From NCBI GenBank assembly GCA_963777505.1, contig CAVZQN010000003.1, positions 288,001 through 352,000 of the forward strand: DNA of 64,000 bases. The letters are read 5' to 3'. This document shows, piece after piece, positions 5,076 through 47,105 of this stretch (the first letter of the stretch is position 1; each line of letters opens with the position of its first letter). Source of the DNA: an uncultured bacterium. GTDB taxonomy: Bacteria > Acidobacteriota > HRBIN11 > JAKEFK01. Below the pieces are notes generated by a model. The model had not been told where the DNA came from and searched no databases. It worked only from the letters and a program-made list of their open reading frames with translations. The position numbers were made by a program, and so were the translations under genes.

Positions 5076-5182
5076 GGCGATTGAGTTCAAAAGTTCATTA
5101 GCATAAACGCCACGAAATTCTAACTCCCACAGATGAGATTCTGATTTGAACACTTCGAAAGTTTTTACAGCCAAAAACTAAT

Positions 5183-7066: not shown

Positions 7067-7201
7067 GATAATAAAAAGAACACGCAAAGACATTTTTCTT
7101 TGCAATATGAATGTTCTGAATTGTTTTTTGTTCTTGGTGGGCTAACAGTAGAAAACCGGATCTTCCGGTAAGCGTTTTTTCGACTAGATGAGGGGTGTTC
7201 A

Positions 7202-11345: not shown

Positions 11346-11368
11346 TAATTTACTTTTAGCAAGGACCT

Positions 11369-15571: not shown

Positions 15572-15572
15572 C

Positions 15573-19379: not shown

Positions 19380-19384
19380 TAAAA

Positions 19385-20668: not shown

Positions 20669-20698
20669 GTTTTAACATTTGAATTAGGAGATACGCTG

Positions 20699-21475: not shown

Positions 21476-21577
21476 AACTAGCCCCCCATAGTTCATTTAT
21501 AAAGAAAGTTCCTGTAGAATATCTTATTAATACACGATAAAGCATTCTAATTGTGAGAGGAGAGGATAGGAGAACCC

Positions 21578-22855: not shown

Positions 22856-22871
22856 TCTTGCAGGGGGAAAG

Positions 22872-23804: not shown

Positions 23805-23916
23805 ATTTATTCAGTCTGATCCAAACATTCCCTTTTTGGTTTTAGCAATTGTTAACAATCACCATTAGATAAGGTTGATCCATAGTTATTTCTTGGGTTG
23901 AAGAGAATCATTTTTA

Positions 23917-25224: not shown

Positions 25225-25225
25225 T

Positions 25226-25870: not shown

Positions 25871-25880
25871 GACTTTCGAA

Positions 25881-27008: not shown

Positions 27009-27051
27009 CATTGGATCTCTACGAAAAAAAATCTTATTGTCCTTCTAATAT

Positions 27052-28263: not shown

Positions 28264-28268
28264 CTGAT

Positions 28269-29897: not shown

Positions 29898-29916
29898 AAC
29901 ATACCGGACAAAAATC

Positions 29917-31041: not shown

Positions 31042-32150
31042 GACTTTTAATCATTTCTAATATGTCGCATTACCTCAAAGACGGCCGTGTCTTTGGTTGG
31101 GGTCCAACTGTGCAGGAAATAAACCATCTATCTAAACTTTTTGATAGTGTGAGGCATATCGCATTTTTACATCCGGAGCAGGCGCCGGCTTCTTCCTTGC
31201 CCTATGAGTCTAAGAATATTTACCTTGTTCCTATGAGTCCCAGCGGAGGCAAGAGATGGTACAACAAATTCAAGATTTTATTCCTGGCGCCAAAATATGT
31301 TTGGACAATTCATAAAGAGTTGAAGAATGCTGATGTCGTTCACCTTCGTTGTCCTGCAAATATCACTCTGCTTGCTCTTTTGTATTTATCATTTTCAAAG
31401 AATCCTGCAAAAAGATGGATCAAATATGCAGGCAACTGGAAGCCTGATCAAAAGGAAGCCTGGTCTTACACCGCTCAACGGTGGTTGTCGCGGCGCGGCT
31501 TTCATTGCGGTGTTGTGACTGTCAATGGAAATTGGAAAGGTGAACCTGAGTTCATACACTCTTTCCCTAACCCGTGTCTGGACAAAAATGAATTGGATTC
31601 TGCAAAAGAAATCGGAATTCGAAAGGAAATCGCCGATCCGATTCAGCTGATGTACAGTGGCCGATTAGATGAAGAAAAAGGAGTAGGCCGGTGTCTCCAA
31701 ATCGTATCCATTCTTAAAAAGAGAAATATCTCTGCGCGATTGGATGTGGTTGGCGACGGCGCTCTGCGGAAAACCTTCGAAGGGATGGCTCGATCTCTCA
31801 ATGTTGATGACATCGTGAATTTCTACGGTTGGCTTCCGCGTACAAAACTTCCTGAAATTTATGCAAAGGGCCATATATTCTTATTCCCGAGTTCAAGCAG
31901 TGAAGGCTGGCCCAAAGTCTTGAGTGAATCGATGGCATATGGAATGGTTCCGATAGCCGGACGTATCAGCAGTATTCCGCAGTACTTAGAAATGTTCGAG
32001 TGCGGCACTGTATTAGACCCTTTCGATATTGAGGGTTTTGCTGATGCAATTTACAGCTATCGAAATGATCCTGAGAAGTGGCGGATTCAATCCCGCAAAG
32101 GAATCAGTTCCGCTTCTCTTTTTCCTATGAGAACTACCTTAAGAAAGTGA
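31038..32150 (+). CDS. Glycosyltransferase family 4 (true end probably 32215; -1 slip in T5 at 32119-32123)
   Basis: GTG start overlaps the previous TGA; SGRLDEEKG, SEGWPKVLSESMAYG. Adding one T gives the typical tail LFSYENYLKKVTELL... Confidence 0.85.
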   Translation: MRLLIISNMSHYLKDGRVFGWGPTVQEINHLSKLFDSVRHIAFLHPEQAPASSLPYESKNIYLVPMSPSGGKRWYNKFKILFLAPKYVWTIHKELKNADVVHLRCPANITLLALLYLSFSKNPAKRWIKYAGNWKPDQKEAWSYTAQRWLSRRGFHCGVVTVNGNWKGEPEFIHSFPNPCLDKNELDSAKEIGIRKEIADPIQLMYSGRLDEEKGVGRCLQIVSILKKRNISARLDVVGDGALRKTFEGMARSLNVDDIVNFYGWLPRTKLPEIYAKGHIFLFPSSSSEGWPKVLSESMAYGMVPIAGRISSIPQYLEMFECGTVLDPFDIEGFADAIYSYRNDPEKWRIQSRKGISSASLFPMRTTLRK

Positions 32151-32225
32151 CCGAGCTTCTCCAGTTAAACGATAAGATGATAGAAAGAGGAATGACGCCA
32201 GTTCCAACTGATTAAATAACTCACT

Positions 32226-33209
32226 ATGGAAATCCTAACAAACGCATCTCCGCCGTTAACGCGTGAGCTTCACCCCGTTACGATTGAATCGACTAAGCCA
32301 GCGAATATATTGCCGCTCCTGTTCATTCTGATTCACGTTCCTTTGGCTTTACAGATGGATAAATATGAACAGATTTCCACAGCTCACGCGTACGTCGTTC
32401 TGGCCGTAGGTATCATTGCAGCGATTGCAAAAAGGCTTGATATTGCAGCAGCTGCGGCTGCATATATTACAGGCGCAGAAGTCTTATGGCGAATGACACA
32501 CGCAAACGTCTTCTGGGAGTTTGGAAAATATGCAACGGTTGCTATCTTTATTGTTGGCTTGATCCGTTCAGGAATTCGAAACTCGGTTTTACCTTTTATT
32601 TACTTTGGTCTTCTCATTCCTTCAACAATCCTTACGGCTGAAGGATTATCAATCGCTCTTGCTCGATCGGAACTTAGTTTTAATCTTTCCGGACCTCTTG
32701 CGCTTCTCGTAACTACTTGCTTTTTTTCTGGATTGTCGTTCACCAGGAAACAAATAGGAAATATTTTTATTTCTATGCTGGCACCGATTAGTGGAATTGC
32801 CTCGATTGCAGCCTATTCAACATTGACCGCCACCGCTATTCATTGGAGTGGTGAATCGAATTGGACAACAAGCGGTGGGTTTGGTCCCAATCAAGTTTCA
32901 TCGATGCTAGGCCTTGGTGCACTAACAACACTGTGGTGTTTTATCGCACTGAAATCCACAAAATTCTTGAAACTGGTACTGATGGGTCTGGGTATTGTTT
33001 TGATCACACAAGCGCTGCTCACATTTTCAAGGGGCGGCGTGTATCTCGCTGTTGCCAGTATTTTGGTTGTCGATAATTTTTCTGGTCAGACAACCCCGGC
33101 AGCTCATTCAGCTTCTTTTTGGAGCTGTTGTAGTAAGCGTAATCATGTTTGCACTGGTGAGGCCATGGCTGAATTCATTTACCGGAAATCGCTTAGAGGA
33201 GCGCTATAA
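32226..33209 (+). CDS. O-antigen ligase/polymerase (Wzy/WaaL-like) membrane protein, N-terminal part (frameshift ~33066)
   Basis: Many TM helices; GGFGPNQ, LLTFSRGG motif. Confidence 0.75.
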   Translation: MEILTNASPPLTRELHPVTIESTKPANILPLLFILIHVPLALQMDKYEQISTAHAYVVLAVGIIAAIAKRLDIAAAAAAYITGAEVLWRMTHANVFWEFGKYATVAIFIVGLIRSGIRNSVLPFIYFGLLIPSTILTAEGLSIALARSELSFNLSGPLALLVTTCFFSGLSFTRKQIGNIFISMLAPISGIASIAAYSTLTATAIHWSGESNWTTSGGFGPNQVSSMLGLGALTTLWCFIALKSTKFLKLVLMGLGIVLITQALLTFSRGGVYLAVASILVVDNFSGQTTPAAHSASFWSCCSKRNHVCTGEAMAEFIYRKSLRGAL

Positions 33210-33624
33210 GAATGTCGGAACAACTGGACGTATAGAAATTATCGAAGATGATTTGAGAATCTGGAGCGAGCATCCATTTCTTGGAGTAGGACCAGGTCAA
33301 GCTATGGATTATAGAAGATTATTTGAGCGCGGAGCGCTTGCCCATACTGAGTTTACACGCATGCTTGCTGAACATGGCATGCTCGGTCTTGCTGCCATCG
33401 GTATATTAATAGCAATTGCATTTCGAAATATGCATCAAACACCGTCAGGAGTTGGGAGAGCGGTTAACGGTTCGCTCATATTTTGGAGTATTTCTTTTAT
33501 GGCAATTTATGCAATGAGGCTTGCTGCTCCAGCATTTTTATTTGGTCTGAGCTCAGCGTATACCGTTGAGGATGACGATTATGTCATAGCAGGCGACGAA
33601 GTTGATGAAGAGAACAGCGAATGA
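33052..33624 (+). CDS. O-antigen ligase/polymerase-like protein, C-terminal part
   Basis: TTGRIEI...HPFLGVGPG...AHTEFTRMLAEHGMLG (Wzy_C signature); the joined protein is ~465 aa. Confidence 0.75.
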   Translation: MPVFWLSIIFLVRQPRQLIQLLFGAVVVSVIMFALVRPWLNSFTGNRLEERYKNVGTTGRIEIIEDDLRIWSEHPFLGVGPGQAMDYRRLFERGALAHTEFTRMLAEHGMLGLAAIGILIAIAFRNMHQTPSGVGRAVNGSLIFWSISFMAIYAMRLAAPAFLFGLSSAYTVEDDDYVIAGDEVDEENSE

Positions 33625-34682
33625 AGCATCGTTCACTTCTCATTGTAGGAAATTTCCTTTCACAAGCTTCGAAGACTAGAAGCGTTTGCGAAGATCTGGC
33701 AGAGCGCTTAACCGATTCCGGATGGTCTGTAATTACAACTTCTTCAAGAAAACCTCGCGCTGCACGCCTGATGGATATGCTTTCCACAATTTGGAAAAAA
33801 AGAAATGAGTATGAAATTGCACAGGTTGATGTTTATAGCGGACGTGCTTTTTTATGGGCAGAAGCTTCTTGCTGGACGCTTCGTCAGGCGCGAAAGGATT
33901 ATGTTTTAACTCTTCATGGTGGCAACCTTCCAGAATTTTCACGGAAGCATCCAGAAAGAGTTCGCAAGCTTCTAAATTCAGCAATTGCTGTAACGTCACC
34001 TTCTTTGTATCTGGCAGAATTAATGGGCCAGTATCGGCAGGATTTGATCCTGCTGCCGAATCCAATTGATGTAAATGCATTTTCATATCGAATGCGAAAA
34101 GATCCTAAACCAAGATTGGTCTGGCTTCGTGCATTTCATAGAATCTACAATCCACAGCTAGCTGTTAAGGTGCTTGCACTGTTGACTCAAGATTTTCCGG
34201 AGATTCAACTCATTATGGGCGGACCAGATAAAGATGGTGTGACATTGAAAGAATTTAGAGAGACAGCGGAGACACTTAAAGTCTGGGACAGAATTGAAAT
34301 ATCTGGATCCATCCAACGCAGTAATATCAGTGCTTTTCTAAACCGGGGCGATATTTTTCTTAACACAACTTTTTTTGATAACACTCCAGTTAGTGTGATG
34401 GAAGCCATGGCATGCGGGCTTTGTATAGTCAGTACGAATGTCGGCGGAATACCAAAACTCCTTGAGCATGAAAAAGATGCTTTATTGGTGCCGCCAGATG
34501 ATCACAATGCGATGGCCGCAGCTGTATCCCGCCTTTTAACTGAAACGGAATTTTCTTCAAAAATTTCAGCGGGCGCTCGCTCTAAAGTGGAAAATTTTGA
34601 TTGGTCTCAGATTCTTCCAAAATGGCAATCTCTTTTTGTGGCCTGCTCCAAGCAAAACCAAATCACTCCCATCGGAAACTAA
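33621..34682 (+). CDS. Glycosyltransferase family 4
   Basis: LHGGNLP, WLRAFHRIYNP, DNTPVSVMEAMACGL. Confidence 0.9.
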   Translation: MKHRSLLIVGNFLSQASKTRSVCEDLAERLTDSGWSVITTSSRKPRAARLMDMLSTIWKKRNEYEIAQVDVYSGRAFLWAEASCWTLRQARKDYVLTLHGGNLPEFSRKHPERVRKLLNSAIAVTSPSLYLAELMGQYRQDLILLPNPIDVNAFSYRMRKDPKPRLVWLRAFHRIYNPQLAVKVLALLTQDFPEIQLIMGGPDKDGVTLKEFRETAETLKVWDRIEISGSIQRSNISAFLNRGDIFLNTTFFDNTPVSVMEAMACGLCIVSTNVGGIPKLLEHEKDALLVPPDDHNAMAAAVSRLLTETEFSSKISAGARSKVENFDWSQILPKWQSLFVACSKQNQITPIGN

Positions 34683-34685
34683 GAA

Positions 34686-36062
34686 ATGTCACTTCCAGAA
34701 CAGAATTCATGGAATCGAATTTTGCGAAATTGGATTTTACCCGTTGGCGATTTCGCTTTCGGACAGGGAATGATTGAACGATTCAATTATCTTGAAAAAG
34801 CACAATGGTGGGATCAAGAAAAAATTCATAAAGTACGAAACGAAAGTCTGCAAAAACTAATTCAAATTGCCTTTCATGAAGTTCCGTACTACCGCGAGCA
34901 AATGATGCGCGCAAACGTCAAGCCAGAAGATATAAGGACAATCTCTGATCTGCAAAAAATTCCGATTTCAACAAAAGACATGTTTCGGGAAAATCATCCA
35001 GCCAAGACAGTCAGACAAACGAAACAAAGACATTACGAAGTACGAACATCAGGTTCTACGGGAAAGAATTTTTCTGTAATTGAAGATGCGGCAACGGCTG
35101 GCTCATACCGGGCATGCCACCTTCTCTCACTTAGTTGGGCAGGATGGAATATTGGTGACCCTCATCTTCAAACTGGAATGACATTGAAAAGAAGTTTGGA
35201 CAGAAAGCTCAAAGATGCTTTCATGCGATGTCACTATGTTTCAGCATTTGATCTAACCGATGAAAATTTGGATCGAAGTCTAGAGCGAATCGAACGTAAC
35301 AAATTGAAGCATGTTTGGGGTTATCCTGGCAGTATATTTTTTCTTGCGCGTAGAGCATTACAAAATGGATTTCTCGAAAAGCTGAATTCAGTTGTAACCT
35401 GGGGGGACACTCTCTACAGCAACTATCGTGAAACAATTGAAAAGGCATTTCAGGTTCGTGTTCATGACACATATGGTTGTGGTGAGGGAATACAAATCTC
35501 CGCGCAATGCGGTGTGGGCAGCAACTATCATATCCATTCACTGGATACGATTGTTGAGTTCATCAATGATGATGGCACTCCCGCAGCTTCAGGTGAACCA
35601 GCAAACATTATTCTTACGCGATTACATCCCGGTCCGATGCCTTTGATCCGTTACAGGGTTGGAGATGTTGGAATTTCTTCTTTAGATAAAAAATGCGAAT
35701 GTGGAAGAGGATTTGATTTAATGCATAGCATCCAGGGGCGGGATACAGATGTGGTAATCACTCCGAATGGCAACAAATTGATCGTCCATTTTTTTACTGG
35801 AGTCCTTGAACATTTCCATGAAATTGACTCCTTCCAGGTAATTCAAGAATCAATCGATTCTATCCTCATCCGAATGGTGCTTAACACGCCTTTAACAAAA
35901 GAACTCGATAATAGGATTGTGAAGGCTCTTCAAGAAAAAGGAGCAACCGGTTTGCGTATCGAGCTTGAGACAGTCAGCGACATTCCAATTTCAAAGAACG
36001 GTAAAAGAAGGTTTGTTATTAGCAGTGTTGGAAAATCGAACATAAGCTCAAATGTTGTATAA
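34686..36062 (+). CDS. Phenylacetate-CoA ligase-like / CapK family protein
   Basis: TSGSTGK P-loop, YGCGE, MPLIRYRVGD, IQGRDTD, NGKRRFV. Confidence 0.85.
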   Translation: MSLPEQNSWNRILRNWILPVGDFAFGQGMIERFNYLEKAQWWDQEKIHKVRNESLQKLIQIAFHEVPYYREQMMRANVKPEDIRTISDLQKIPISTKDMFRENHPAKTVRQTKQRHYEVRTSGSTGKNFSVIEDAATAGSYRACHLLSLSWAGWNIGDPHLQTGMTLKRSLDRKLKDAFMRCHYVSAFDLTDENLDRSLERIERNKLKHVWGYPGSIFFLARRALQNGFLEKLNSVVTWGDTLYSNYRETIEKAFQVRVHDTYGCGEGIQISAQCGVGSNYHIHSLDTIVEFINDDGTPAASGEPANIILTRLHPGPMPLIRYRVGDVGISSLDKKCECGRGFDLMHSIQGRDTDVVITPNGNKLIVHFFTGVLEHFHEIDSFQVIQESIDSILIRMVLNTPLTKELDNRIVKALQEKGATGLRIELETVSDIPISKNGKRRFVISSVGKSNISSNVV

Positions 36063-36155
36063 GAACTGGAGTTCCTCCTCTAGATTTAGTGCTTCTCCCG
36101 TTTGAAATTCGGACAAATCTCATACAAAAACGGCGATTTTGAGAGGAGTGGTCTG

Positions 36156-36171
36156 TGGCTTAACTCTTGCA
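36156..36171 (+). promoter_or_regulatory. Putative sigma54 (-24/-12) promoter
   Basis: TGGCTT-AACTC-TTGCA, with GG (36157-58) and GC (36169-70) exactly 10 bp apart, in a long intergenic region. Confidence 0.5.
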
Positions 36172-36196
36172 TACTTCTTGTCGAACTTAGAATGCC

Positions 36197-36223
36197 GATG
36201 ATCGGACTGGACCACCGATCATC
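36197..36223. repeat. Perfect 9-bp inverted repeat (hairpin)
   Basis: GATGATCGG-actggacca-CCGATCATC; no U-tract on either strand. Confidence 0.7.
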
Positions 36224-36888
36224 AGAAAAGCAATAGATTTTCGACAGATTTCCTAATTAGGAATACAATTGTAGTACTACCGGTTAAGTGGAATCTATTA
36301 AGAAGATCCTATTCGATTAAGATTTTTTGCAAAAAGGTTGATCCGAGATAGCATTTTTTGATTTCGGAGACCATATTTAAAGTGTCTTTTTGCATTAAGT
36401 GTTGTTCGTGGCTGAGTTGGTTTGAATTGGGCAAGTGGAGATTATGGCGTTCGTAATTGATTCGTGTGTTTCCGTGAACATCAGTATAGCCTCTGGAATT
36501 CGTAATAAGAATTCTATGCATTTCGCTTATGGGGGTGGGGTTTTATGCCGCACTGTGGTACTGGACGAGCTTTCAAAGCAACATTGCTGCAGTTCCCAGT
36601 CCAGAGATCTCACACTTCAGCAGTCATATTCAGAGGAAACCAAATCGCAACAATTGACGATAACTTTAATAACTAACAAAAAAGAACTTCTTTCCGGAAA
36701 GACGGAGAACAATGAGGGTTGTTCGAATTGTCTTGAATCGCCGGGAAAATTATTGCAATAGTGACGTGTTTTGAAGCGTGATGCTGCACATTCAATTTCT
36801 AAAATCATTTTCGATTCGTAGAAATTGAAACCTTATTAAAAAAAGCACACGTAACAGTTAGAGGTCTGAAGAGAGAGGAGAAGGGAGT

Positions 36889-38343
36889 ATGCAGTTAACG
36901 GGCGTATTGCGTCTAATAGGACGTTTCGTCGATCGGTATTTAAAGCTAGTTCTGCTCGACGCAGTCGTAGTCATGCTGAGTTTATGGACTGCGTGGTCGA
37001 TTCGAGCACTCACAACGGATCTCGATAGAGGTCCGGTTCTGCTATTTACATCTCTGTCCGTTCTAATTTATTGGCTTTCCAACCTCTGGTTCCGTATGTA
37101 TCAACGGATCTGGAAGTATGCCGCCGCTGCCGAAATTATCAGTATTGCAGAAGCAAATATGTGCTCTGTTTCCATTATTGTGATACTCGATTTATTGTGG
37201 CCCGATACACGGCCCATTCCGATTAGTGTCCTTTTACTGAGCGGCGTTTTTTCGTTTTGTGGTTTTATCATGGTTCGTTATCGACAAAGACTGTGGACCG
37301 GGCTTAATTGGAGATGGAATGCCTATCGAAAGCCCGCCGGACAGGATCAAGAGCGCGTTCTAATTGTCGGTGCCGGAGAAGCGGGTGAAATCTTTGCACG
37401 CCGTATCCTTTATTCGCCGACCGGTGGAAAACGACATGAAATAGTCGGCTTTATTGATGATGATTCTGCGAAGCATAGAATGAGGCTGCATGATTTGCCG
37501 ATTTTTGGCGGATATACATTAATTCCTGAAATCGTTGCCAAGTATGAAGTTGATTTGCTTGTCATCGCAATCTATAACATCACCGGCCCCAACTTCAGAA
37601 ATATTTTGGATGTTTGCGAGAATACACCTGCGCGAATCAAAATCATCCCGGACCCAATGGAGTTTCTGGAACTTCAATCTGATGCGCCGCCTATTCGTGA
37701 CGTTTCTTCCGAAGATCTCTTAGGAAGAAAAGCAGTAGAAATTGATGCTAGTGCTTGCAGCAAGTTGTTGGAAGGTTGTCGTGTCCTTGTTACAGGAGCT
37801 GCTGGCTCAATCGGTTCTGAGCTGTGTGAACAGATTCTATCTTTTAATCCCCAGCAACTCATTCTCCTGGATAATAACGAATCAGGATTATATGAAATTC
37901 ACAATCATCTAAAGCGGCTACTGGCAGCTCAAGCGATCAAAACGCGAATGACTTCAATAGATAAACTGATTCCTATCGTGTGCAGTATTACCAATCGTTC
38001 AAAAATGAATTTTGTATTCAGTAAATATCGTCCAGAGATCGTGTTCCATGCCGCAGCCTATAAACATGTTCCGATGATGGAAGATCAACCGGATGAAGCT
38101 TTATGGGTGAACGTATACGGTACAAAAAATCTTGTTGAACTATCGCGAGAATACGAAGTAGAACGTTTTGTATTTGTTTCGACCGACAAAGCAGTTCAAC
38201 CGGTATGTATGATGGGCGCAACAAAATGGTTGGCTGAACTGATGATCATGAATCCTGATGCCTGGTCCCGCAGAGGACGTGAAGTAGGGGCAGAAGAACG
38301 TCGAAAACAACAGAGAACATCAGCCGAGACATCAAGCGGCTGA
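36889..38343 (+). CDS. CapD/PglF/WbpM-type membrane-anchored UDP-GlcNAc 4,6-dehydratase, N-terminal part (frameshift between 38288 and 38343)
   Basis: 4 TM helices, VLIVGAGEAG, EDLLGR, VTGAAGSIGSEL, FHAAAYKHVP, STDKAV, MGATK; SD GAGGAG upstream. Confidence 0.88.
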   Translation: MQLTGVLRLIGRFVDRYLKLVLLDAVVVMLSLWTAWSIRALTTDLDRGPVLLFTSLSVLIYWLSNLWFRMYQRIWKYAAAAEIISIAEANMCSVSIIVILDLLWPDTRPIPISVLLLSGVFSFCGFIMVRYRQRLWTGLNWRWNAYRKPAGQDQERVLIVGAGEAGEIFARRILYSPTGGKRHEIVGFIDDDSAKHRMRLHDLPIFGGYTLIPEIVAKYEVDLLVIAIYNITGPNFRNILDVCENTPARIKIIPDPMEFLELQSDAPPIRDVSSEDLLGRKAVEIDASACSKLLEGCRVLVTGAAGSIGSELCEQILSFNPQQLILLDNNESGLYEIHNHLKRLLAAQAIKTRMTSIDKLIPIVCSITNRSKMNFVFSKYRPEIVFHAAAYKHVPMMEDQPDEALWVNVYGTKNLVELSREYEVERFVFVSTDKAVQPVCMMGATKWLAELMIMNPDAWSRRGREVGAEERRKQQRTSAETSSG

Positions 38344-38371
38344 AACGGACAGCTCGAATTTTGATGGCACT

Positions 38372-40627
38372 TTGTATACAGCTGTACGTTTTGGAAATGT
38401 GCTTGCGAGCCGCGGAAGTGTTGTGCCTGCTTTTGAACAACAGATCCGCGCAGGCGGTCCTGTGATGGTTACACATCCTGAAATGACACGCTACTTCTTA
38501 AGTATTAAGGAAGCGGTCAGGCTCATTATTCAGGCGGCTACTTTTACACAAGGCTGCGATATTTTCATGCTGCACATGGGAGAGCGAATTAAGATTGATG
38601 ATCTTGCGCGCCGATTAATCAGGCTTCGCGGAGCACGTCCGGATATCGATATCCCGATCGTCTATACAGGAATCAGACCGGGCGAAAAAATGCATGAAGA
38701 ATTGGTAGCACCAGGTGAATTAAAACTTGATACGCAGCATTCACGAATCTTCAGGATCAGAAAAAATCAGATGCCTGCTCCCGAACTTCTTGCAGATGAA
38801 ATCGATGAATTACAAAAGCTTGCGAAGGATCATGAACATGCAGATCTTGCTGACAGATTGCAAAAATTCGTTTCAGTAACTGAGGGTCAGCAACCTGGCG
38901 GACATACAATCATGTTCCGCGGAAAAATTTCAGAACTTATGACAAACGCGCGTGATGCAGAATCTAGCGAAAATTGGGATCTCGCCCTTGAACATTATGG
39001 TGATGCACTCAGATTGAGTGAAGGAATTCAAAATCGTTCTGCTGATTTGCTCTGCAAAATGGCAGCGATTCATTTGAAGAAATGGAACATCGGCGAAGCC
39101 ACTGAAATGCTGAATCAAAGCAAGGATCTCAGCAGAAGGAACGGTTACATTCCTGGATTACTTCAATCCAGCATCTTGCTAGGCAAAACGGCTGAACTCG
39201 CGGGAGATTATCTACTCGCGATTAAACATTATCGTTCTGCAATGCGCATGGAAGCCTTGTATAAAACGAATGAAAACAAAGCAACGATTCTAGCCAGCAT
39301 TGGCCGCGTACTTGAAAAGCAAGGTAAATTTCATAAGGCAGTTCCATATTTGAAAAAAGCAGTTGATTGCATGAAAGAGGAGCCTATTTCATCTGAGAAA
39401 GCCGAAGCAATTTACCGGCTGGGTTCCTGTGCAGCTCAATTATCATGGCCCCAGCGCGCGGAAAAATGTTTGTATCAAGCTCTTATACTGTCGCGTCAAC
39501 TTCAAGACAGAAATCTTCAAGCGGAAATTTATATACAGCTTTCACGTTTGAGTCTTATGAGAAAGCAAAGATTGAAAGCTCGTGAGCTTGCAGAACAATC
39601 ACTCGAAATTTTGCTCTCCGGTGGCTCTAAACTAAAACTTGCGGAAGCATACTTAATACTTGGAAGCATTCTTCGTGAAGAACTGAAGTTGGGACTCGCT
39701 GAAGAGCATTTGCAAAAATGTTTGAATCTTTGTGCCGAAACTGGCCAGGTTATGTTAACAGGCGATGTGTATGTTGCACTCTCTGTGCTTTACATGGATC
39801 AGGAACAAATTACAAAGGCCCTTCAGCACCTTTCACTGGCTCAAACGCAATTCAGCCGTGTGACAAAACCTGCCGAGTTAGTTCAAACCAGAGCAAAAAT
39901 GGAAGAACTCGAAAAATTGTTTGTTCGCGCTTGCCGTGAGCTTGCAAGTAATTCGGGTCGAGGTTGGGATGAGGATCATGGCTTACGCGTCGCATTGCAC
40001 TGTCTTGAACTCGCAGAATGGCTCGGTCTAACTGGCGATCAAAAGAAAGCTCTCGTTTCAGCTGCACTGTTGCACGATATCGGCACATCAAAAGTGTGTG
40101 AAGAAATTCTTATGAAACGTGGATTGCTTACAGAAGAGGAGCTGACTGAAGTTAAGAAACACGTGCTGCATTCTGCAGCCATGATTGAGGATATTCAATT
40201 CCCGTGGCCGGAAGTCCTTGCATACGTGAAATATCATCACGAAAGATATGATGGTGAAGGATATCCCTTAGGGCTGCGAAAGGATGAAATTCACCTTGGT
40301 GCTCGCATCCTTGCATTAGCTGATTTTTATGTCGCACTGACATCTGACAGAAGCCATCGAAAAGCATTTCCCGTGCAGGAAGCCCTAGAAATGGTTCGTC
40401 AGGAATCGGGAAGAATGTTCGATCCGAAAGTTGTTGAAGTATTTTTGCATCCGCGTTTTGTAGATATGCTTCTTTCAATGACTGGAAATGTAGAAGACAG
40501 GATGGATTCATCTCCATTATGGACGAGATTACAGAATGTTGCGACAGCCTCTCCTTCTCTTAAACTAAAAAATGCGACTTCCACCGGAAATCGTGTTGAT
40601 GAACGGGATGGCACATTCGGCTTATAG
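38372..40627 (+). CDS. CapD C-terminal subdomain fused to TPR repeats and an HD-GYP domain (joined protein ~1245 aa)
   Basis: AVRFGNVLASRGSVVP, MTRYF, GIRPGEKMHEEL; then ~8 TPR-like helical repeats; then HGLRV...LLHDIG...KKH...HHERYDGEGYP...ADFY...DRSHRKA. Confidence 0.88.
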   Translation: MYTAVRFGNVLASRGSVVPAFEQQIRAGGPVMVTHPEMTRYFLSIKEAVRLIIQAATFTQGCDIFMLHMGERIKIDDLARRLIRLRGARPDIDIPIVYTGIRPGEKMHEELVAPGELKLDTQHSRIFRIRKNQMPAPELLADEIDELQKLAKDHEHADLADRLQKFVSVTEGQQPGGHTIMFRGKISELMTNARDAESSENWDLALEHYGDALRLSEGIQNRSADLLCKMAAIHLKKWNIGEATEMLNQSKDLSRRNGYIPGLLQSSILLGKTAELAGDYLLAIKHYRSAMRMEALYKTNENKATILASIGRVLEKQGKFHKAVPYLKKAVDCMKEEPISSEKAEAIYRLGSCAAQLSWPQRAEKCLYQALILSRQLQDRNLQAEIYIQLSRLSLMRKQRLKARELAEQSLEILLSGGSKLKLAEAYLILGSILREELKLGLAEEHLQKCLNLCAETGQVMLTGDVYVALSVLYMDQEQITKALQHLSLAQTQFSRVTKPAELVQTRAKMEELEKLFVRACRELASNSGRGWDEDHGLRVALHCLELAEWLGLTGDQKKALVSAALLHDIGTSKVCEEILMKRGLLTEEELTEVKKHVLHSAAMIEDIQFPWPEVLAYVKYHHERYDGEGYPLGLRKDEIHLGARILALADFYVALTSDRSHRKAFPVQEALEMVRQESGRMFDPKVVEVFLHPRFVDMLLSMTGNVEDRMDSSPLWTRLQNVATASPSLKLKNATSTGNRVDERDGTFGL

Positions 40628-40738
40628 CATCTAAAGCTTCCATTGATGTGTGATTCATAATAGTAATAGAGATGGCAGAGCTCTAGGCAGTCTACTGATT
40701 AATGTTTCTTAAAATTCGCCTGGCTTAGAATACAAAAA

Positions 40739-42982
40739 TTGAAAATCGCAATTTTAGTCGGTACCCGCCCTGAAATCATAAAGATGTCTCCAGTTATTCT
40801 GGAGTGTCAGCGGCGTGGACTTCCATTCTTCATCATTCATTCCAAACAACACTATTCAGAAAAATTGGATTCTATTTTTTTTGAAGAATTACAGCTTCCA
40901 CTGCCGAAATACAATCTGAACGCAGGATCAGGAGGGCATGCCAATCAAACCGGCCGAATCTTGATTGAAATCGAACCTATTCTGGAAAACGAAAAACCAG
41001 ATCTACTGCTTGTTCAAGGTGACACCAATACGGTTGTTGCCGGAGCATTGGCAGCTCAAAAAATGCAGATTAAGGTCGGCCATATCGAAGCGGGCTTGCG
41101 ATCTTTTGATAAAACGATGCCTGAAGAGAGCAATCGTATTATTGCCGATCACATTTCGGATTTTTTATTTGCAGTAACGGATATCCAGGTTGACATTCTA
41201 AAGCGCGAAGGAATCGCAGATGAAAAAATATTCAAAGTTGGAAACACAATTGTAGATGCATTGCTTCGCAACATTGCAGTTGCTTCCAGTAAGAGCCGGA
41301 TAGTCTCTGAGCTTCAATTGAAACCCAAGGAATATTATCTTTTTACTGCGCATCGTGGTTCAAATGTTGATGAAGATCAATCTTTAAAAGAAGTGGTTGA
41401 TCTCATTGAATCGATTCCTGGAAAAGTTGTCTGGCCGCTTCATTATCGTACTCAGAAAAGATTGAATCAGACCGGATTAATTCCACCCGGCAATGCATTG
41501 ATTATTGAACCACTTGGATATTGGGATTTTCTGGAATTGCTTGATCAGTGCAAAAAAGTAATTACTGATTCAGGAGGCGTTCAAGAGGAAGCGTGTATTC
41601 TGGGAGTGCCTTGTATAACAATTCGTGCCAATACAGAAAGGCCAGAAACGGTCAAGATTGGAGCTAACGATGTCGTTTACCATGACCGTGAAAAACTTCT
41701 GGCTGCAATCCATAAGAGCCCGTCAAAATGGGAGAATCCTTTCGGCGATGGTCAAACGGCTCAACGTATTTTGGATATTGTTACGCCTAAATCTTTGCAC
41801 TCGAAATCTCTTTTTCCCGAAACTGTAAGTGTTATCGGCTTAGGCTATATGGGACTGCCGACAGCTCTTTTGCTTGCGACTAATGGCGTGAAGGTAAATG
41901 GAATCGATATCAATGAAAAGAAAGTGGAATCAATCCGGTCAGGCAAATGTCCGTTCGATGAACGTGGAATGGAGAGTCTGCTGAAAGAAGCGCTTGAAAC
42001 CGGACTTTTCAATGTCACCACAGAACTTAAAAGAGCTGATATTTATATTGTTGCTGTTCCAACTCCGCATGTGGATCGTCGTTGCGATTTGACGTATGTT
42101 CTGCAAGCCGTTTCTAATTTATTGCCTGTCTTTAAAAATGGCGATCTTCTAATCATAGAATCCACAATAAAGCCTGGTACGTGCTCAAACCACATAATGC
42201 CACTGTTAAAAAAAGCGGGAATCAATGTCGAAGTAGCACATTGTCCGGAACGGGCCATTCCTGGAAATACGCTGCATGAGATTCTTCACAACGACAGAAT
42301 CGTTGGAGGTTCGGCATCGGCTGTAACACGCGCTAAAGCGCTCTATTCGACGTTTGTTCGCGGTAAACTTCACGAAGCGGATCTTATTACTGCTGAGTGT
42401 GCCAAACTCATGGAAAATACTTACCGTGACGTCAATATCGCTTTAGCAAATGAATTTTCGATTGTTGCTGAGGAATTGGGCTTCGACGTTTTTAAAGCGA
42501 TTCGTCTGGCAAACCTTCATCCACGCGTGAGCATTTTGAATCCCGGTGTCGGTGTTGGTGGACATTGCATTGCAATTGACCCATGGTTTTTGATTGAGGA
42601 TGTGAAGAAGTCGACATTGATCCGAGCATCACGTGAACTGAACGATAGTATGCCAAAGAGAACTGTCGAACGAATTGAAAGCAAGATTCCAAAAGGAACG
42701 AAACGTCTCGGATTGCTTGGCGTTAGCTACAAGCCCAATGTGGACGATGCACGGGAAACTCCGGCGCTCAAAGTTGCCAGGGCATTGTTAGAAAAAAAAT
42801 ACGAAATCCGATGTCAGGATCCCTATGTGAAAGAGTGGGATCTACCATTATTTCCTTTTGAAAATGTAGAACAATGGGCTGAGGTACTCATTGTATTGAG
42901 CGAACACGATGTCTACAATAATTTAACGTCACATCTCCCGATTCTTCATCTGCACGATATTTTAAATCCCTCAACTTTGTAA
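40739..42982 (+). CDS. wecB: Fused UDP-GlcNAc 2-epimerase (WecB) / UDP-ManNAc dehydrogenase (WecC)
   Basis: N-half: GTRPEIIK, QGDT, HIEAGLRS, TDSGGVQEEA, NPFGDG. C-half: IGLGYMGLP, AVPTP, EST, CPER, KLMENTYRDVNIA, GGHCI, YKPNVDDARETP. Confidence 0.92.
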   Translation: MKIAILVGTRPEIIKMSPVILECQRRGLPFFIIHSKQHYSEKLDSIFFEELQLPLPKYNLNAGSGGHANQTGRILIEIEPILENEKPDLLLVQGDTNTVVAGALAAQKMQIKVGHIEAGLRSFDKTMPEESNRIIADHISDFLFAVTDIQVDILKREGIADEKIFKVGNTIVDALLRNIAVASSKSRIVSELQLKPKEYYLFTAHRGSNVDEDQSLKEVVDLIESIPGKVVWPLHYRTQKRLNQTGLIPPGNALIIEPLGYWDFLELLDQCKKVITDSGGVQEEACILGVPCITIRANTERPETVKIGANDVVYHDREKLLAAIHKSPSKWENPFGDGQTAQRILDIVTPKSLHSKSLFPETVSVIGLGYMGLPTALLLATNGVKVNGIDINEKKVESIRSGKCPFDERGMESLLKEALETGLFNVTTELKRADIYIVAVPTPHVDRRCDLTYVLQAVSNLLPVFKNGDLLIIESTIKPGTCSNHIMPLLKKAGINVEVAHCPERAIPGNTLHEILHNDRIVGGSASAVTRAKALYSTFVRGKLHEADLITAECAKLMENTYRDVNIALANEFSIVAEELGFDVFKAIRLANLHPRVSILNPGVGVGGHCIAIDPWFLIEDVKKSTLIRASRELNDSMPKRTVERIESKIPKGTKRLGLLGVSYKPNVDDARETPALKVARALLEKKYEIRCQDPYVKEWDLPLFPFENVEQWAEVLIVLSEHDVYNNLTSHLPILHLHDILNPSTL

Positions 42983-44202
42983 TGCGCTTCCTTATTCTGA
43001 CTCAGTATTTCGAACCTGAGATTGGCGCGCCTCAAGTGCGATTCAGATCATTCATCTCCAACTTAGTAAAGCTAGGTCATCAGGTTGAAGTAGTTACAGC
43101 GCTTCCAAATTATCCAACCGGAAAGATATTTCCCGGATACACCGGCAAGTTCTACAAGTATGAAATGGGTAACGATGGTGTACCTGTTCACCGGGTTTGG
43201 ATCTATGCAGCATTAGGAGGTGGTGCAGGTCGAATGCTGAACTATTTGAGCTTTGCGTTCTTCAGCCTTTACTGCATTTTCAAAGTGAAACGCCCAGACT
43301 ACGTTTTTGTCGAGTCTCCACCTTTATCGCTCGGAGTGGTGGGTTGGCTATATGCGAAGATTTTTCGCTGCAAAGTTATCTTTAACGTTGCTGATCTTTG
43401 GCCGGATTCGGTAAAGGAACTCGGCATTATACAAAATGGAACCGTACTGAAAATGGCTTATTGGCTTGAAGACTTTATCTATCGTCATTCAAACTACGTC
43501 AACTCCGTGACAATTCAGACAACTCGTACTTTGAATGAAAAGAAAAACGTTCCCATGAATAAACTAAAATTCTTGCCCAATGGAGTTGATACCGAAATTT
43601 TTTTTCCTGCTGAAAGTAGTGAAAGTGTTCGTACCGAACTCGGTTGGGAAGGCAAATTCGTAATTATCTATGCAGGCACGGTTGGCATTGCTCAAGGTTT
43701 ACTCACAGTCATTAAAGCAGCAGATCGACTCAAGCGGATGCCTGAATTCAACAATGTTCTCCTTTGCATTGTCGGAGGTGGGTCAGAAAAGAATTTGCTA
43801 TTAAAAGAAGTCGAGCAAAATGGATATCAAGGAGTGCGTTTTATTGATCCTATGCCACCAAAACAGCTGGTTCAACTGCTGCGGAACGCTGATTGCGGTT
43901 ATGTAGGCCTGATCGACAAAGAACTTTTTCTGGAAGTAAGGCCTTCTAAAATGTTTCCAAAAATTGCGTGTGGACTGCCGCTTGTTTTTGCGGGCCGCGG
44001 TGAAGCAGCTTCCATTGTCCATGAACTTGATGCCGGGATTGTCGTGCCGCCAGAAGACACGCACGCACTGGAATCCGCGCTGATGGATATGTACCTAAAG
44101 TTGCCGGAGTATCGAGCTCGACTTAAAAAAGCACAAGAAATTATTCAGACACGTTACTCATGGGAGCACAATACAAAGGAATGGTTAGCCAGCCTTGACT
44201 GA
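42982..44202 (+). CDS. Glycosyltransferase family 4 (WbuB-like)
   Basis: LTQYFEPEIGAP, ALPNYPTG, RMLNYLSF, DLWPDS, YAGTVGIAQGL, RPSKMF. Confidence 0.9.
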   Translation: MRFLILTQYFEPEIGAPQVRFRSFISNLVKLGHQVEVVTALPNYPTGKIFPGYTGKFYKYEMGNDGVPVHRVWIYAALGGGAGRMLNYLSFAFFSLYCIFKVKRPDYVFVESPPLSLGVVGWLYAKIFRCKVIFNVADLWPDSVKELGIIQNGTVLKMAYWLEDFIYRHSNYVNSVTIQTTRTLNEKKNVPMNKLKFLPNGVDTEIFFPAESSESVRTELGWEGKFVIIYAGTVGIAQGLLTVIKAADRLKRMPEFNNVLLCIVGGGSEKNLLLKEVEQNGYQGVRFIDPMPPKQLVQLLRNADCGYVGLIDKELFLEVRPSKMFPKIACGLPLVFAGRGEAASIVHELDAGIVVPPEDTHALESALMDMYLKLPEYRARLKKAQEIIQTRYSWEHNTKEWLASLD

Positions 44203-45682
44203 TCAATCATTGTTTCTAAAAAGATCTATTGTCAAACGCTTTCTTTTCTTTTCAATTTTGAGTCTTTTAGTTTCTTCAGTTTTCGATTGCTTTGGGGAAG
44301 GCAAGTCTGATGCCTTTCCATGGTTTCAGGCGTTCACTCCACAGAGGACGTTTTATGTAAGTCCTTCGAAGGACGGTGATGGTAAATCCCCTGAGACCGC
44401 CATGAGTTTCAAAAAGGCATTAACCAGTGGAAAACCTGGAGATTTATTTTGGGTGATGGAAGGAAGATATACCGGAGCATTTAGTGCTACTCAAGCTGGG
44501 ACGGAGAAAGATCCTATTGTTTTTCGCGCAGAAAAAGGCCGGCATGTAATTATTGAAGGGGGAGTCAGGTTGGAAGCACCCTATAACTGGATTTGGGGTT
44601 TCGAGATTACTGACCCTAAGGGAATTAAGCCTGTCGGTGGTGGGATTGAATTGCTTGCACCAGGAAACCGCGCGATTAATAACGTCATCCATGATCATCT
44701 TGGCAAAATTGGTATCGGTGCATGGCAACAAGGCAAAGGCCATGTAATTTATGGAAATATCATTTACAGTCAACTGCCGAAGTCTAACAATCCTCACAAT
44801 CTTTACGCCCAAAATGATTTTGAAAGCTGGGGATATAAATATTTTGTGAACAATATTCTTGCCGATTCTGAGGAAGCTACCGATAAGACTTTTAATGTTC
44901 ATTGTTATACGCAGGGCGGACTTCTAACGGGTTTGTGGTTTGAGAAAAACATAATACGAAATGGGAAGTTTCTAATTGGAGGATTTAACGCGCCCGCTGA
45001 ACATGATGTCGTTAAAGAAAATTATTTTTATAAATCAACTATACAATTCGGGTTTAGACGTCCGACTCAGGTTCAATTTCAGAATAATTATGTCGCCCGC
45101 ACACCTCTCGTAACAGAATGGTTTTGGGGTGCAGGTGAAACTCAATTCAAACAGACCACTCCAAGCGTTTACACCGGTAATGAATTTGTAAATCCGCCTG
45201 GACCGCACATACGATTTTCAACATCTGCATATTTGCCTTCAGGCAGGTGTGAAGGATGCCCAAGAATTCGGCCTGATGACATTTTCGATGAAAACAAATA
45301 TTCAGCTCCATTCCAGGCCACATTCTATGCGGATTCCAGGAACGCGGGAATTGTTGATCTCGAAAAATGGAGACGGCTTACGGCTCATGCCGGAAAAGGT
45401 TTTGATGCAAATTCTGAACAAGTTGCGTCTCCAAAGGGAGTGAAGACTGTTATCTTAAAGAATGAGTACGATCCCCTTCGAGCTCATGTGGCTGTATACA
45501 ATTGGTCGGAAGAATCAACGGTTCGTCTGGATCTAGGAGCTTATCTGCCTATGGGGACAAAGTTTGCGATCCATGATGTAAAGCAAATATTTCAAGCTCC
45601 GGTCCTTGCAGGTACATATTCCGGTCCGATCGAAATCCCCGCAGATGGCGAATTTCGTGTCTTTGTAGTAACTCGCCAGTAA
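44195..45682 (+). CDS. Exported right-handed beta-helix protein (pectate lyase-like; putative polysaccharide lyase/modifier)
   Basis: Hydrophobic N-terminus; FYVSP..DG.G, PGD..WV..GRY, GTEKDPIVFRA, repeated IxNNxI/ExN turns. Confidence 0.65.
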   Translation: MTDQSLFLKRSIVKRFLFFSILSLLVSSVFDCFGEGKSDAFPWFQAFTPQRTFYVSPSKDGDGKSPETAMSFKKALTSGKPGDLFWVMEGRYTGAFSATQAGTEKDPIVFRAEKGRHVIIEGGVRLEAPYNWIWGFEITDPKGIKPVGGGIELLAPGNRAINNVIHDHLGKIGIGAWQQGKGHVIYGNIIYSQLPKSNNPHNLYAQNDFESWGYKYFVNNILADSEEATDKTFNVHCYTQGGLLTGLWFEKNIIRNGKFLIGGFNAPAEHDVVKENYFYKSTIQFGFRRPTQVQFQNNYVARTPLVTEWFWGAGETQFKQTTPSVYTGNEFVNPPGPHIRFSTSAYLPSGRCEGCPRIRPDDIFDENKYSAPFQATFYADSRNAGIVDLEKWRRLTAHAGKGFDANSEQVASPKGVKTVILKNEYDPLRAHVAVYNWSEESTVRLDLGAYLPMGTKFAIHDVKQIFQAPVLAGTYSGPIEIPADGEFRVFVVTRQ

Positions 45683-45687
45683 AAAAA

Positions 45688-46974
45688 TCAAAAAGCTAGC
45701 TGTACTCCTGCGCCAATAATATTCCTTTCTTTGTCGCTGTTTGGAGCGTTAGAATCCCGATTCAGTCTGGTTCCTGAAATAAAAATCTGCCAGATCCTTG
45801 CAACTCTAAATCGTACTGAAAGCATCGAATCGATTGCACTGTCGTCAATTTCACCGGGAACAAGCTCTCCGGTTGGTGTGAGAACCAAACTTGGTTCCAC
45901 GTACGAGTTTTTTTCAAAGGCTACCAAAGCGAAAAGAGAGACGTCTCTTGTAATATAAAATTCAACATTCGGCGCAATACGACTTTCTATGAAAAACCAG
46001 TTATTCTCGACGATTGATGGGGGAGTGCTACGCGAATATGCAAGTCCCAAAACTGTTCGCTCTCCAACTCTAAAATTTACTGAACCCAAACCAACAAGAC
46101 CACTGAACTCTGGTTCTCCTTCAACTTCAGGAACCATATTTTTGTAGCCTAAAATTACTTGTCCAGTGATGTTTCCTTTGGCCGCAAAGGAAAACCCGCC
46201 TTCTACGCCGACAATATCGGCATCCGGTTGAAGCGAAAAATCTGCGAAGTCCCACTTTTCATAGTAAGTGTTGAAAAGGAAAGTTGTGAATTCTGAAACA
46301 TGCCGGCGGAATCCGCCAATAACTCGGAATGTGTCCTCATCATAAAACTGGGAAAGGGGCGTGTCAGTGGGATTTACTATTTCGTTCGCAATATCAGTCG
46401 AAGTACTTTGTACTCCGATGACAGCTTCTGATTTACGTCCTATGCCAACCATCAAAGAAGAATCAAAATTGTTAGTGCGCTGGTCGGTTGGAAAATCAAA
46501 CTCTTGCGATGGCCTGGTTCGTCTGAATAGGTAGGTATCGCCGATCGTAAATAGAACCCGATTACCACCAATCGTAAATCGTGCGCCTACAGTATTGAAA
46601 ACACCCCGCAGATCCTCTGTATCTCTGTAATAAATAAAATTAACTTCATCTTCAATTTGAAGTAACGCTCTCTCATGAAAAGGTAAATATGCAACGACGC
46701 CAGGATCTGCTTGAATCGTGAGGTCATCGACTACATCAGTTGAAAGCAAGAGACTGTTTGAATCGTAGGCGCTAAAGACGTTGAGCTTAGGCTCAATCCA
46801 AAATGCACCGGCTTGAAATAGGCTTTTTGCAATCGCCTCCTCAATGGTGTTCCCCATAAGTCCTTTCGGCAGCTCTTCTTCCTCAACATTTCCAACCACC
46901 TCTTGAGCAGACACTTCGACAGCCAAAAGCAGCGATAAAACTAGACACAAGAGTAACTTTGACCTAATCCCCAT
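45688..46974 (-). CDS. Outer-membrane beta-barrel of polysaccharide export (BBP2/EpsX-like)
   Basis: Start moved to ATG 46974 (SD AAGGGGGA); signal peptide, YDSN motif, alternating beta-strands, C-terminal Phe (VQLAF). Confidence 0.75.
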   Translation of the reverse strand: MGIRSKLLLCLVLSLLLAVEVSAQEVVGNVEEEELPKGLMGNTIEEAIAKSLFQAGAFWIEPKLNVFSAYDSNSLLLSTDVVDDLTIQADPGVVAYLPFHERALLQIEDEVNFIYYRDTEDLRGVFNTVGARFTIGGNRVLFTIGDTYLFRRTRPSQEFDFPTDQRTNNFDSSLMVGIGRKSEAVIGVQSTSTDIANEIVNPTDTPLSQFYDEDTFRVIGGFRRHVSEFTTFLFNTYYEKWDFADFSLQPDADIVGVEGGFSFAAKGNITGQVILGYKNMVPEVEGEPEFSGLVGLGSVNFRVGERTVLGLAYSRSTPPSIVENNWFFIESRIAPNVEFYITRDVSLFALVAFEKNSYVEPSLVLTPTGELVPGEIDDSAIDSMLSVRFRVARIWQIFISGTRLNRDSNAPNSDKERNIIGAGVQLAF

Positions 46975-47047
46975 GGATCTTCCCCCTTTACACGGTTCAA
47001 TCATTTTACAACATTAAGAGCATCCTAAACCTATATTTTCTAATGTT

Positions 47048-47076
47048 TTGACAGTCTAAACACATAAATCTATAAT
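47048..47076 (+). promoter_or_regulatory. Consensus sigma70 promoter upstream of the OPX gene
   Basis: TTGACA (47048-53), 17-bp spacer, TATAAT (47071-76). Confidence 0.75.
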
Positions 47077-47105
47077 CAAAGTCCGCTAAACGGCATATTA
47101 TTCGC

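Follow-up and report, generated by a model that had tools for sequence, protein, structure and literature searches.

A PglF/WbpM-type dehydratase joined to TPR repeats and an HD-GYP domain in an acidobacterial surface-polysaccharide locus, and its possible link to c-di-GMP

Cyclic di-GMP (c-di-GMP), a second messenger, controls exopolysaccharides via transcription factors and via receptor domains on synthases, and the PilZ domain of BcsA, Alg44 and PelD are c-di-GMP receptor domains situated on or beside polysaccharide synthases. Could the messenger also act earlier in the pathway, on an enzyme that supplies a nucleotide-sugar precursor? This question is raised by a gene at 36889-40627 of a 64,000-nt stretch of DNA from an uncultured bacterium of the Acidobacteriota (contig CAVZQN010000003.1, positions 288,001 to 352,000; hereafter the window, in whose numbering all positions are given). 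The gene is present as two halves, the open reading frames (ORFs) 36889-38343 (ORF1) and 38372-40627 (ORF2). From its sequence, the encoded product is a membrane-anchored PglF/WbpM-type UDP-N-acetylglucosamine (UDP-GlcNAc) 4,6-dehydratase, followed by a superhelix of eight tetratricopeptide repeats (TPRs), a long helix and an HD-GYP domain. We compared it with its relatives, including the ortholog in a genome of the same genus (G001; the genome of the window is G000). The fusion is real, rare and conserved, and we discuss what the HD-GYP domain may do beside a metabolic enzyme.

One gene in two halves

The two ORFs share a single dehydratase domain. ORF1 matches the Pfam family CoA_binding_3 and positions 1-154 of the Polysacc_synt_2 profile (E 6e-51), and ORF2 resumes the latter profile at positions 163-292 (residues 2-130, E 1e-48), with 173.7 and 166.4 bits over the two ORFs against a curated cut-off of 20.2. 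Further along ORF2, TPR_12 matches in four stretches (E 5e-23) and HD_5 at residues 539-687 (E 5e-33). The 3' end of ORF1 encodes out-of-frame residues up to a TGA at 38341-38343, while the stop-to-stop frame of ORF2 spans 779 residues and opens about 84 nt upstream of its first TTG. A first-pass annotation, made from the sequence alone, had described this architecture, and the motif coordinates it gave all proved correct. The GxxGxxG, TDK and MxxxK motifs that it had assigned to the N-terminal half of the dehydratase were found in ORF1 (GAAGSIG at 37795-37815, TDK at 38182-38190 and MGATK at 38212-38226), as were its four transmembrane helices: a Kyte-Doolittle scan detected hydrophobic segments at residues 17-39, 50-68, 80-104 and 108-132, a predicted N-terminal membrane anchor. 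Because ORF2 runs without a stop from the C-terminal half of the dehydratase to the HD-GYP domain, the fusion stands even if the frameshift between the halves is left unrepaired, as that annotation had argued. The features are listed in Table 1.

Table 1. Positions of the gene, its parts and associated features
Feature	Position	Strand	Basis or content
ORF1, N-terminal fragment, 484 aa, frame 1	36889..38343	+	4 transmembrane segments, CoA_binding_3-like domain, N-terminal half of the dehydratase, a short-chain dehydrogenase/reductase (SDR)
Single extra base, frame 1 to frame 2	38319..38320	+	agaacA/Tcagcc, outside any homopolymer; within the charged SDR loop
ORF2, C-terminal fragment, 751 aa from first TTG, frame 2	38372..40627	+	SDR C-terminal half, linker, TPR, long helix, HD-GYP, tail
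Polysacc_synt_2, C-terminal half (PglF/WbpM-type)	38375..38761	+	ORF2 aa 2-130; Pfam profile and alignment to PglF
TPR superhelix, 16 helices in 8 hairpins	38918..39856	+	ORF2 aa 183-495; Pfam TPR_12 and TPR_MalT, AlphaFold2, Foldseek
Single long helix joining the TPR array to HD-GYP	39869..39955	+	ORF2 aa 500-528; AlphaFold2 model
HD-GYP domain	39977..40534	+	ORF2 aa 536-721; HD 40073-40078, HHERYDGEGYP 40235-40267
Surface-polysaccharide locus, ~48 kb	379..48650		Pfam and further profile matches
GT2 remnant, last 32 aa	36532..36627	+	tblastn with the GT2 of G001, 56% identity, E 4e-7
WecB + UDP-ManNAc dehydrogenase fusion, 747 aa	40739-42982	+	directly downstream of the fusion gene
CapD-EAL proteins P0185, P0291-P0296, P0335, P0336, P0366, P0401, P0403	outside window		uncharacterised

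The best solved relative of the dehydratase is PglF/WlaL (PDB 5BJU, E 1.7e-70), in which STDKAV...MGCTK aligns with STDKAV...MGATK of the window. The TDKxnMx3K signature, where Met replaces the Tyr of other SDR enzymes, is described as the mark of the PglF/WbpM class, with Thr395/Asp396 and Lys397 carrying the chemistry (PMC8987622). Judged by these residues, the dehydratase looks competent. It is also the sole strong Polysacc_synt_2 match in G000, with 175 and 172 bits for the two halves of the gene and 68 bits for the next match. In PglF of Campylobacter jejuni (5BJU) and WbpM of Pseudomonas aeruginosa, too, a membrane region at the N-terminus precedes an SDR domain that carries TDK...Mx3K. 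However, both stop after the SDR domain, whereas the window protein adds about 585 residues (TPR, helix and HD-GYP) and has a longer SDR loop. This loop (38227-38390), rich in Arg, Glu and Gln, harbours the frameshift. The spacing between MxxxK and RFGNV is 50-59 residues in all 21 sequences of the clade, as compared to a median of 21 in 66 other proteins of the CapD family to which the dehydratase belongs, although a few non-fused CapD proteins also have 43-88 residues there.

In an AlphaFold2 model of ORF2, built on an 18-row alignment, the TPR helices had predicted local distance difference test (pLDDT) values of about 85-96, the helix that follows them was 29 residues long and the HD-GYP domain was confident, while the isolated SDR half was poorly modelled, as expected. 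Foldseek matched the array to eight-repeat TPR superhelices of LGN/Pins (template-modelling (TM) score up to 0.81, target-normalised), and the HD-GYP domain to DvhD, PA4781 and PmGH. In the model, the long helix looks like a signalling (S) helix, an element that often precedes C-terminal HD-GYP domains according to Galperin and Chou. A complex prediction between the SDR part (residues 271-660 of the intact relative P0005) and the TPR-HD-GYP part (661-1245), with a nine-row alignment, scored 0.00, a value that speaks neither for nor against contact between the two.

The fusion is real, rare and conserved

Since the junction between CapD and the TPR array is bridged by independent contigs and is present in intact proteins elsewhere, it is not an assembly chimera, an alternative that the first-pass annotation had itself raised and that is thereby removed. 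Among the contigs of four public metagenome runs, which we compared with 36800-40700, the junction is spanned without a gap by one from run X2 (record 9, 38596-39482) and one from run X3 (record 12, 4736 nt, 36872-40617, with a gap only at 38320), and intact proteins of 1238-1254 residues with the same fusion come from other sources. In G001, a 1204-residue ORF has the same domain order and is 82% identical over ORF2. A stop after CapD followed by a separate TPR-HD-GYP gene, the arrangement that would have spoken against a fusion, occurs in none of the relatives examined.

The architecture is rare. A search with the TPR-HD-GYP part against 5.8 billion proteins, with lengths of 662-2107 residues allowed, found PF02719+TPR+PF13487 in at least 8 of the 120 clusters listed (P0002-P0009, the window's own ORF2 counted), the remainder matching the HD-GYP domain only. 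Among the best 150 matches of a phmmer search against 1.84 billion representatives, P0009 alone covered query residues 1-721. Two of 401 sampled genomes of the phylum, G000 and G001, carry the fused gene, and three genomes of one genus in the same sample carry a free-standing TPR-HD-GYP gene of 557-572 residues. Species representatives were scanned with two peptide patterns of the N-terminal half of the dehydratase, which detect only genes with those patterns; among 60 confirmed loci, the G001 contig alone matched residues 1-1245, and the other 59 ended at or before residue 696. When metagenomes were scanned for relatives of the TPR-HD-GYP part, 2 of 141 stretches were confirmed; only one of them (L037) is of the fused type, and it is truncated by the start of its contig and adds no upstream context. 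The fused proteins stand in public databases under automatic names. The first-pass annotation did not know the architecture as a characterised one, and our literature search likewise found no description of it, although Table S1/Figure S1 in the supplements of Galperin and Chou, which lay outside the search, could list it. The same search found no paper combining Polysacc_synt_2 with c-di-GMP, and the titles and abstract openings of the listed papers on c-di-GMP and WbpM contain nothing on regulation of the enzyme.

Conservation extends over the whole protein. An alignment of nine full-length proteins shows no stop at the junction, where the EGxQPxG linker is invariant. As compared to P0005, three distant members are 70-84% identical in the SDR domain, 54-61% in the HD-GYP domain and 38-39% in the TPR array, and members as little as about 51% identical still have the fusion. 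In every domain, the proportion of nonsynonymous differences between the window and G001 (pN, 0.04-0.19) lies far below that of synonymous differences (pS, 0.69-0.80), a sign that each part is under purifying selection; the values are proportions and not a rate ratio, since dS against G001 is saturated.

Does the interruption in the window mean that the gene is dead? The reading frame is broken in the window and uninterrupted in P0284, P0005, P0002, P0003 and P0007-P0009. Three-frame translation and DNA alignment to G001 revealed a net gain of one base in the poorly conserved loop. Its placement at 38319/38320 comes from two runs, each with one contig that is a base short at this site: the X3 contig differs from the window by 215 substitutions and a single gap, the base at 38320, and an X2 contig over 38218-38629 lacks the base at 38319. 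No further indel was found inside the gene in the compared contigs of the four runs. The intact proteins P0005 and P0284 read ...RKQQRTQPRHQ... / ...ERRKQQRTQPRHQ(V/A)AETDSS..., which corresponds to the window sequence minus the extra base. By these sequence comparisons, the extra base is private to this assembly. A search of public runs for reads of the strain itself found none that contained them, the best share of sampled words being 0.18, and the comparison was made with relatives about 91-99% identical. Programmed frameshifting was considered and rejected, as the extra base is absent from all intact relatives.

It is a serious possibility, though one we hold to be somewhat short of probable, that the locus is a decaying pseudogene in this organism, with a real frameshift and no protein made, and that the finding applies to its relatives only. 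The site of the extra base, which is not a homopolymer, would agree with this, as would the absence of the PglC-like transferase and GT2 genes that precede the gene in G001 and of which a GT2 remnant is left here. On the other hand, the intact allele P0284 (1245 residues) is 99.2% identical to ORF1 and 99.3% to ORF2, with no further stops or indels between them, so that any inactivation would be very recent. Moreover, indel breaks are present in both few-contig genomes, G000 and G001, the latter a metagenome-assembled genome, and are compatible with consensus errors. In the ortholog of G001, an extra G just after the first transmembrane segment, near codon 35 (L035 ~4440-4560, minus strand), causes a separate +1 shift that puts the first 34 codons in another frame. 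The breaks in the two genomes are compatible with assembly indels.

Two split genes are among these breaks. The Wza-like exporter is one 514-residue ORF in the window (47106-48650) and is split in G001 into ORFs of 223 and 226 residues in different frames (L034 12517-13889, minus strand). A second broken gene in G000 encodes a GGDEF domain split over two frames (G000:C6:93644-94113; profile positions 3-92 and 77-161). A Pfam scan of 43 other ORFs in the window revealed no other split gene, and at a suspected second one, 61995-62285 and 62239-62799, neither ORF has a Pfam match at E 0.01.

HD-GYP residues and proposed function

We aligned the HD-GYP domain to that of PmGH from Persephonella marina (4MCW, where the chain numbering equals the numbering of the paper plus 6). 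The two share the fold, the seven metal ligands, HHExxDGxGYP and the RxxK/R motif: H189, H221, D222, H250, H276, H277, D305, GYP and R314 are retained in the window, and K317 is Arg, so that RxxK reads RSHR. The metal ligands reported in the first-pass annotation were confirmed by this alignment, and so were the two departures it had noticed, HDIGT for HDIGK and ADFYVAL for ADxxDAL, where the second Asp is Val. The c-di-GMP contact set (Y285, R314, K317 as Lys or Arg, and the Lys of KPG, with roles as given by Galperin and Chou) reads Y, R, R and K (KRG) in the window, which would preserve the contacts; in PmGH, the guanine is described as contacted by R314 and K317 (PMC4159591).

In contrast to PmGH, the domain has Trp at E185, Arg at D183, Thr at K225 and Val at D308, and D183 is Arg or Lys within the clade. 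The third-metal ligand of the trinuclear subgroup, E185, is thus replaced, and Trp in its place agrees with the binuclear (Y/F) subgroup of PMC4159591. The accessory residues D183, K225 and D308 of a PmGH-like phosphodiesterase are likewise absent (R/T/V). In PmGH, Ala at any of these three residues is reported to have the same effect as Ala at the metal ligands, each of the three being needed for activity and D183A or K225A abolishing it (PMC4159591). Lys is found at K225 in one of nine fused proteins, as compared to 19 of 21 free-standing TPR-HD-GYP proteins and 170 of 196 other HD-GYP domains, and Asp at D308 in none of the nine, as compared to 19/21 and 158/196. The substitutes vary within the fused clade (T/N/E at K225, V/A/T at D308). 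The most divergent member, P0009, is the only one with Lys at K225, yet it carries D222N and H250Y and keeps GYP and RxxR, which are retained in all nine fused proteins. This set of residues agrees with selection to bind the nucleotide rather than to turn it over, and the domain resembles a sensor more than it does an efficient phosphodiesterase.

A precedent for an HD-GYP sensor is DvhD of Desulfovibrio vulgaris (PDB 9RBZ), a top structural match among HD-GYP domains (TM 0.72, target-normalised), which is described as a non-catalytic c-di-GMP receptor (PMC13090378). The HD and HH motifs are gone from DvhD, which binds the nucleotide without metal, whereas 8 of the 9 fused proteins retain both, and P0009 alone is partly degenerate (HN, no H250). 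The window protein may act in a similar way but does not belong to this degenerate type. The output of DvhD is a periplasmic protease; in the window protein, the enzyme domain is on the same chain. The partner is also of another kind than in the catalytic HD-GYP proteins, which pair with GAF, REC or PAS signalling domains: the survey of Galperin and Chou describes HD-GYP domains as pairing with signalling domains, not with housekeeping enzymes, and here the partner is a metabolic enzyme.

The TPR-HD-GYP module is probably older than its joining to the dehydratase, because the whole module has counterparts in free-standing proteins of 520-600 residues, which are 27-31% identical to it over about 500 residues. 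These uncharacterised proteins (among them P0125, P0129 and that of a gene in the genome G040) are homologous to the window protein over the full module and differ in lacking the dehydratase and in keeping K225 and D308 as counted above. The fused module is likely to derive from such proteins.

A second fusion of the same dehydratase family came from the phmmer matches, in which P0185 combines CoA_binding_3, Polysacc_synt_2 and EAL. A search with its EAL part found PF02719+PF00563 in 12 of the 120 clusters listed, one of them named for Moorena. In all 12 proteins, the second Asp of DDFGTG is replaced by N or H and the first Glu of EGVE by T, A or I, while ExLxR is retained in 9 of the 12; both catalytic motifs are intact in all five GGDEF-EAL controls. 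EAL domains have been predicted to be inactive from loss of the EGVE base (PMC12900916), and LapD is described as binding c-di-GMP via a degenerate EAL domain with ExLxR (PMC12564702). Like the window protein, the CapD-EAL proteins join the dehydratase, at its C-terminus, to a c-di-GMP-type domain short of catalytic residues. They differ in the EAL fold, the lack of a TPR array, an ordinary SDR loop of 21 residues and their phylum, the cyanobacteria. By comparison of domains and sequences, this fusion is independent of the HD-GYP fusion. In two phyla, then, one enzyme family has been joined to unrelated c-di-GMP folds, each with catalytic residues lost, which suggests that the messenger is the functional link. 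In a census of cyanobacterial domains (PMC3747582), the words polysaccharide, epimerase and dehydratase do not occur.

The phmmer search also detected other CapD fusions, namely CapD+Wzy_C+TPR in P0189 (1366 residues), Bac_transf+CapD in P0135 (867 residues) and Glycos_transf_4+CapD in P0231 (913 residues).

These data bear on whether the HD-GYP domain is still an enzyme. In that case it would hydrolyse c-di-GMP while tethered to the polysaccharide machinery and keep the messenger low locally, or it would be a trigger enzyme set by the substrate state of the dehydratase, through which sugar metabolism would feed into the messenger pool. In favour of an enzyme, 8 of the 9 fused proteins retain all seven core metal ligands together with GYP and RxxR, HD-GYP domains of the binuclear type without E185, such as PA4781, are active according to Galperin and Chou, and the free-standing relatives have the full catalytic set, so that the module probably descends from an enzyme. 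However, the clade-wide replacement of K225 and D308 by differing residues looks like relaxed constraint on catalysis, P0009 has lost two metal ligands with the nucleotide-contact residues still in place, and the catalytic base is missing from every one of the convergent CapD-EAL fusions. We therefore regard an active phosphodiesterase as unlikely, though well worth keeping in view.

Instead, we propose that the HD-GYP domain senses c-di-GMP and so gates priming-sugar supply, a reading for which we judge the chances to be evenly balanced. In this mechanism, the dehydratase would make the 4-keto-6-deoxy-N-acetylhexosamine intermediate of the priming sugar, the first committed step, and the HD-GYP domain would bind c-di-GMP, probably with metal, hydrolysing it poorly or not at all. 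The nucleotide state would be relayed via the long helix and the TPR array to the dehydratase or its partners, and the activity of the dehydratase, or its assembly with partners, would change, the sign of the effect being left free. Polysaccharide synthesis would thereby be controlled post-translationally, at the level of the nucleotide sugar. The direction of the coupling between sugar precursor and messenger is one that we infer.

Alternatively, the TPR-HD-GYP part may be a nucleotide-independent scaffold that recruits partners (a phosphoglycosyl transferase, Wzc/Wza or GGDEF proteins), with the HD-GYP domain serving as an interaction surface only. The TPR array is modelled as a peptide-binding superhelix of the LGN/Pins type, the block FPWPEVLAYVKYHHE is invariant across the clade, and some HD-GYP domains are reported to join regulatory protein-protein interactions (Galperin and Chou). 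Nevertheless, the retention of the metal ligands and of the R314/K317-type motif over 51-55% divergence would be hard to explain without nucleotide binding, and the parallel fusion to the EAL domain, an unrelated c-di-GMP-binding fold, suggests the nucleotide as the common factor. A pure scaffold thus seems improbable.

Several points weigh against c-di-GMP sensing by this protein. Its mechanism is drawn wholly from residues and architecture. The gene is frameshifted in the window, and the TTG of ORF2 has no evident ribosome-binding site, so if the shift is real, the C-terminal protein is probably not made in this organism. In 8 of the 9 fused proteins, none of the seven core metal ligands is lost, and the domain may therefore still hydrolyse c-di-GMP. 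The effect of losing K225 or D308 is known from PmGH alone, and these residues are also absent from 26/196 (K225) and 38/196 (D308) of the other HD-GYP domains. Because the nine fused proteins stem from one fusion event, the residue counts are non-independent, and the comparison sets were picked by similarity to the queries. Finally, at the one locus seen, the free-standing TPR-HD-GYP gene of G040 adjoins L21, Obg, RF-1 and MurA-type genes, not polysaccharide genes; its neighbourhood therefore adds no support.

The polysaccharide locus and what the fusion may mean

The surface-polysaccharide locus around the gene encodes a Wzc-like kinase, a DegT/PseC-like aminotransferase, an ABC-2 permease with its ATPase, about ten GT1/GT4 and two GT2 glycosyltransferases, a C-methyltransferase, a PIG-L protein, a beta-barrel porin and a Wza-like exporter. 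In the protein encoded directly downstream, the UDP-GlcNAc 2-epimerase WecB (residues 1-349) is joined to a WecC-type UDP-N-acetylmannosamine (UDP-ManNAc) dehydrogenase (361-731), two consecutive steps to UDP-N-acetylmannosaminuronic acid (UDP-ManNAcA). In the syntenic region of G001, a 200-residue PglC-like Bac_transf gene and a GT2 gene lie immediately upstream of the fusion gene. The corresponding region of the window is an 827-nt gap without a long ORF (36063-36888) that contains the remnant of the GT2 C-terminus. A tblastn search of the window gave no match to the PglC-like Bac_transf of G001; three Bac_transf genes are found elsewhere in G000. A candidate upstream breakpoint at 36872, the position of loose ends of the X2 and X3 contigs, was dropped because similar sequence is present in the window at 36842-36871. 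As judged from its 18 GGDEF matches, c-di-GMP signalling exists in G000, which also has 3 HD_5 matches.

Two further genes in this region were noted. A 458-residue protein (34686-36062, plus strand), 62% identical to its counterpart in G001, has no Pfam match at E 0.01 and a weak NCBIfam likeness to adenylating ligases of the PaaK/F390-synthetase type. Just beyond the locus in both genomes lies a regulator of about 1600 residues with AAA_16, TPR, sigma-54 activator and HTH_8 domains (51574-56409, plus strand, in the window; L034 5327-10129, minus strand, in G001).

The logic of the proposed sensor is that of the BcsA PilZ domain, Alg44, PelD and LapD, where the messenger acts post-translationally through a dedicated binding domain. 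Those cases act on polymerases, co-polymerases and secretion, whereas here the target would be an enzyme of nucleotide-sugar precursor synthesis. Our literature search found no report of c-di-GMP acting on such an enzyme, and the terms dehydratase, epimerase, UDP and nucleotide sugar do not occur in a 2025 review of c-di-GMP effectors. Taken together, the two fusions raise the possibility, which we advance tentatively, that enzymes of nucleotide-sugar synthesis are a class of c-di-GMP effectors not recognised so far, with HD-GYP domains in Acidobacteriota and degenerate EAL domains in cyanobacteria, in which the messenger switches the first committed step to the priming sugar. The putative sensor and its target enzyme lie on one polypeptide, a convenient system for testing the effect of the messenger, and the EAL version offers a second, independent case. 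If the proposal is true, the output of surface polysaccharide would be set at the precursor level and not only at the polymerase or at transcription, which would bear on the regulation of capsule and exopolysaccharide in the abundant, mostly uncultured Acidobacteriota of soil.

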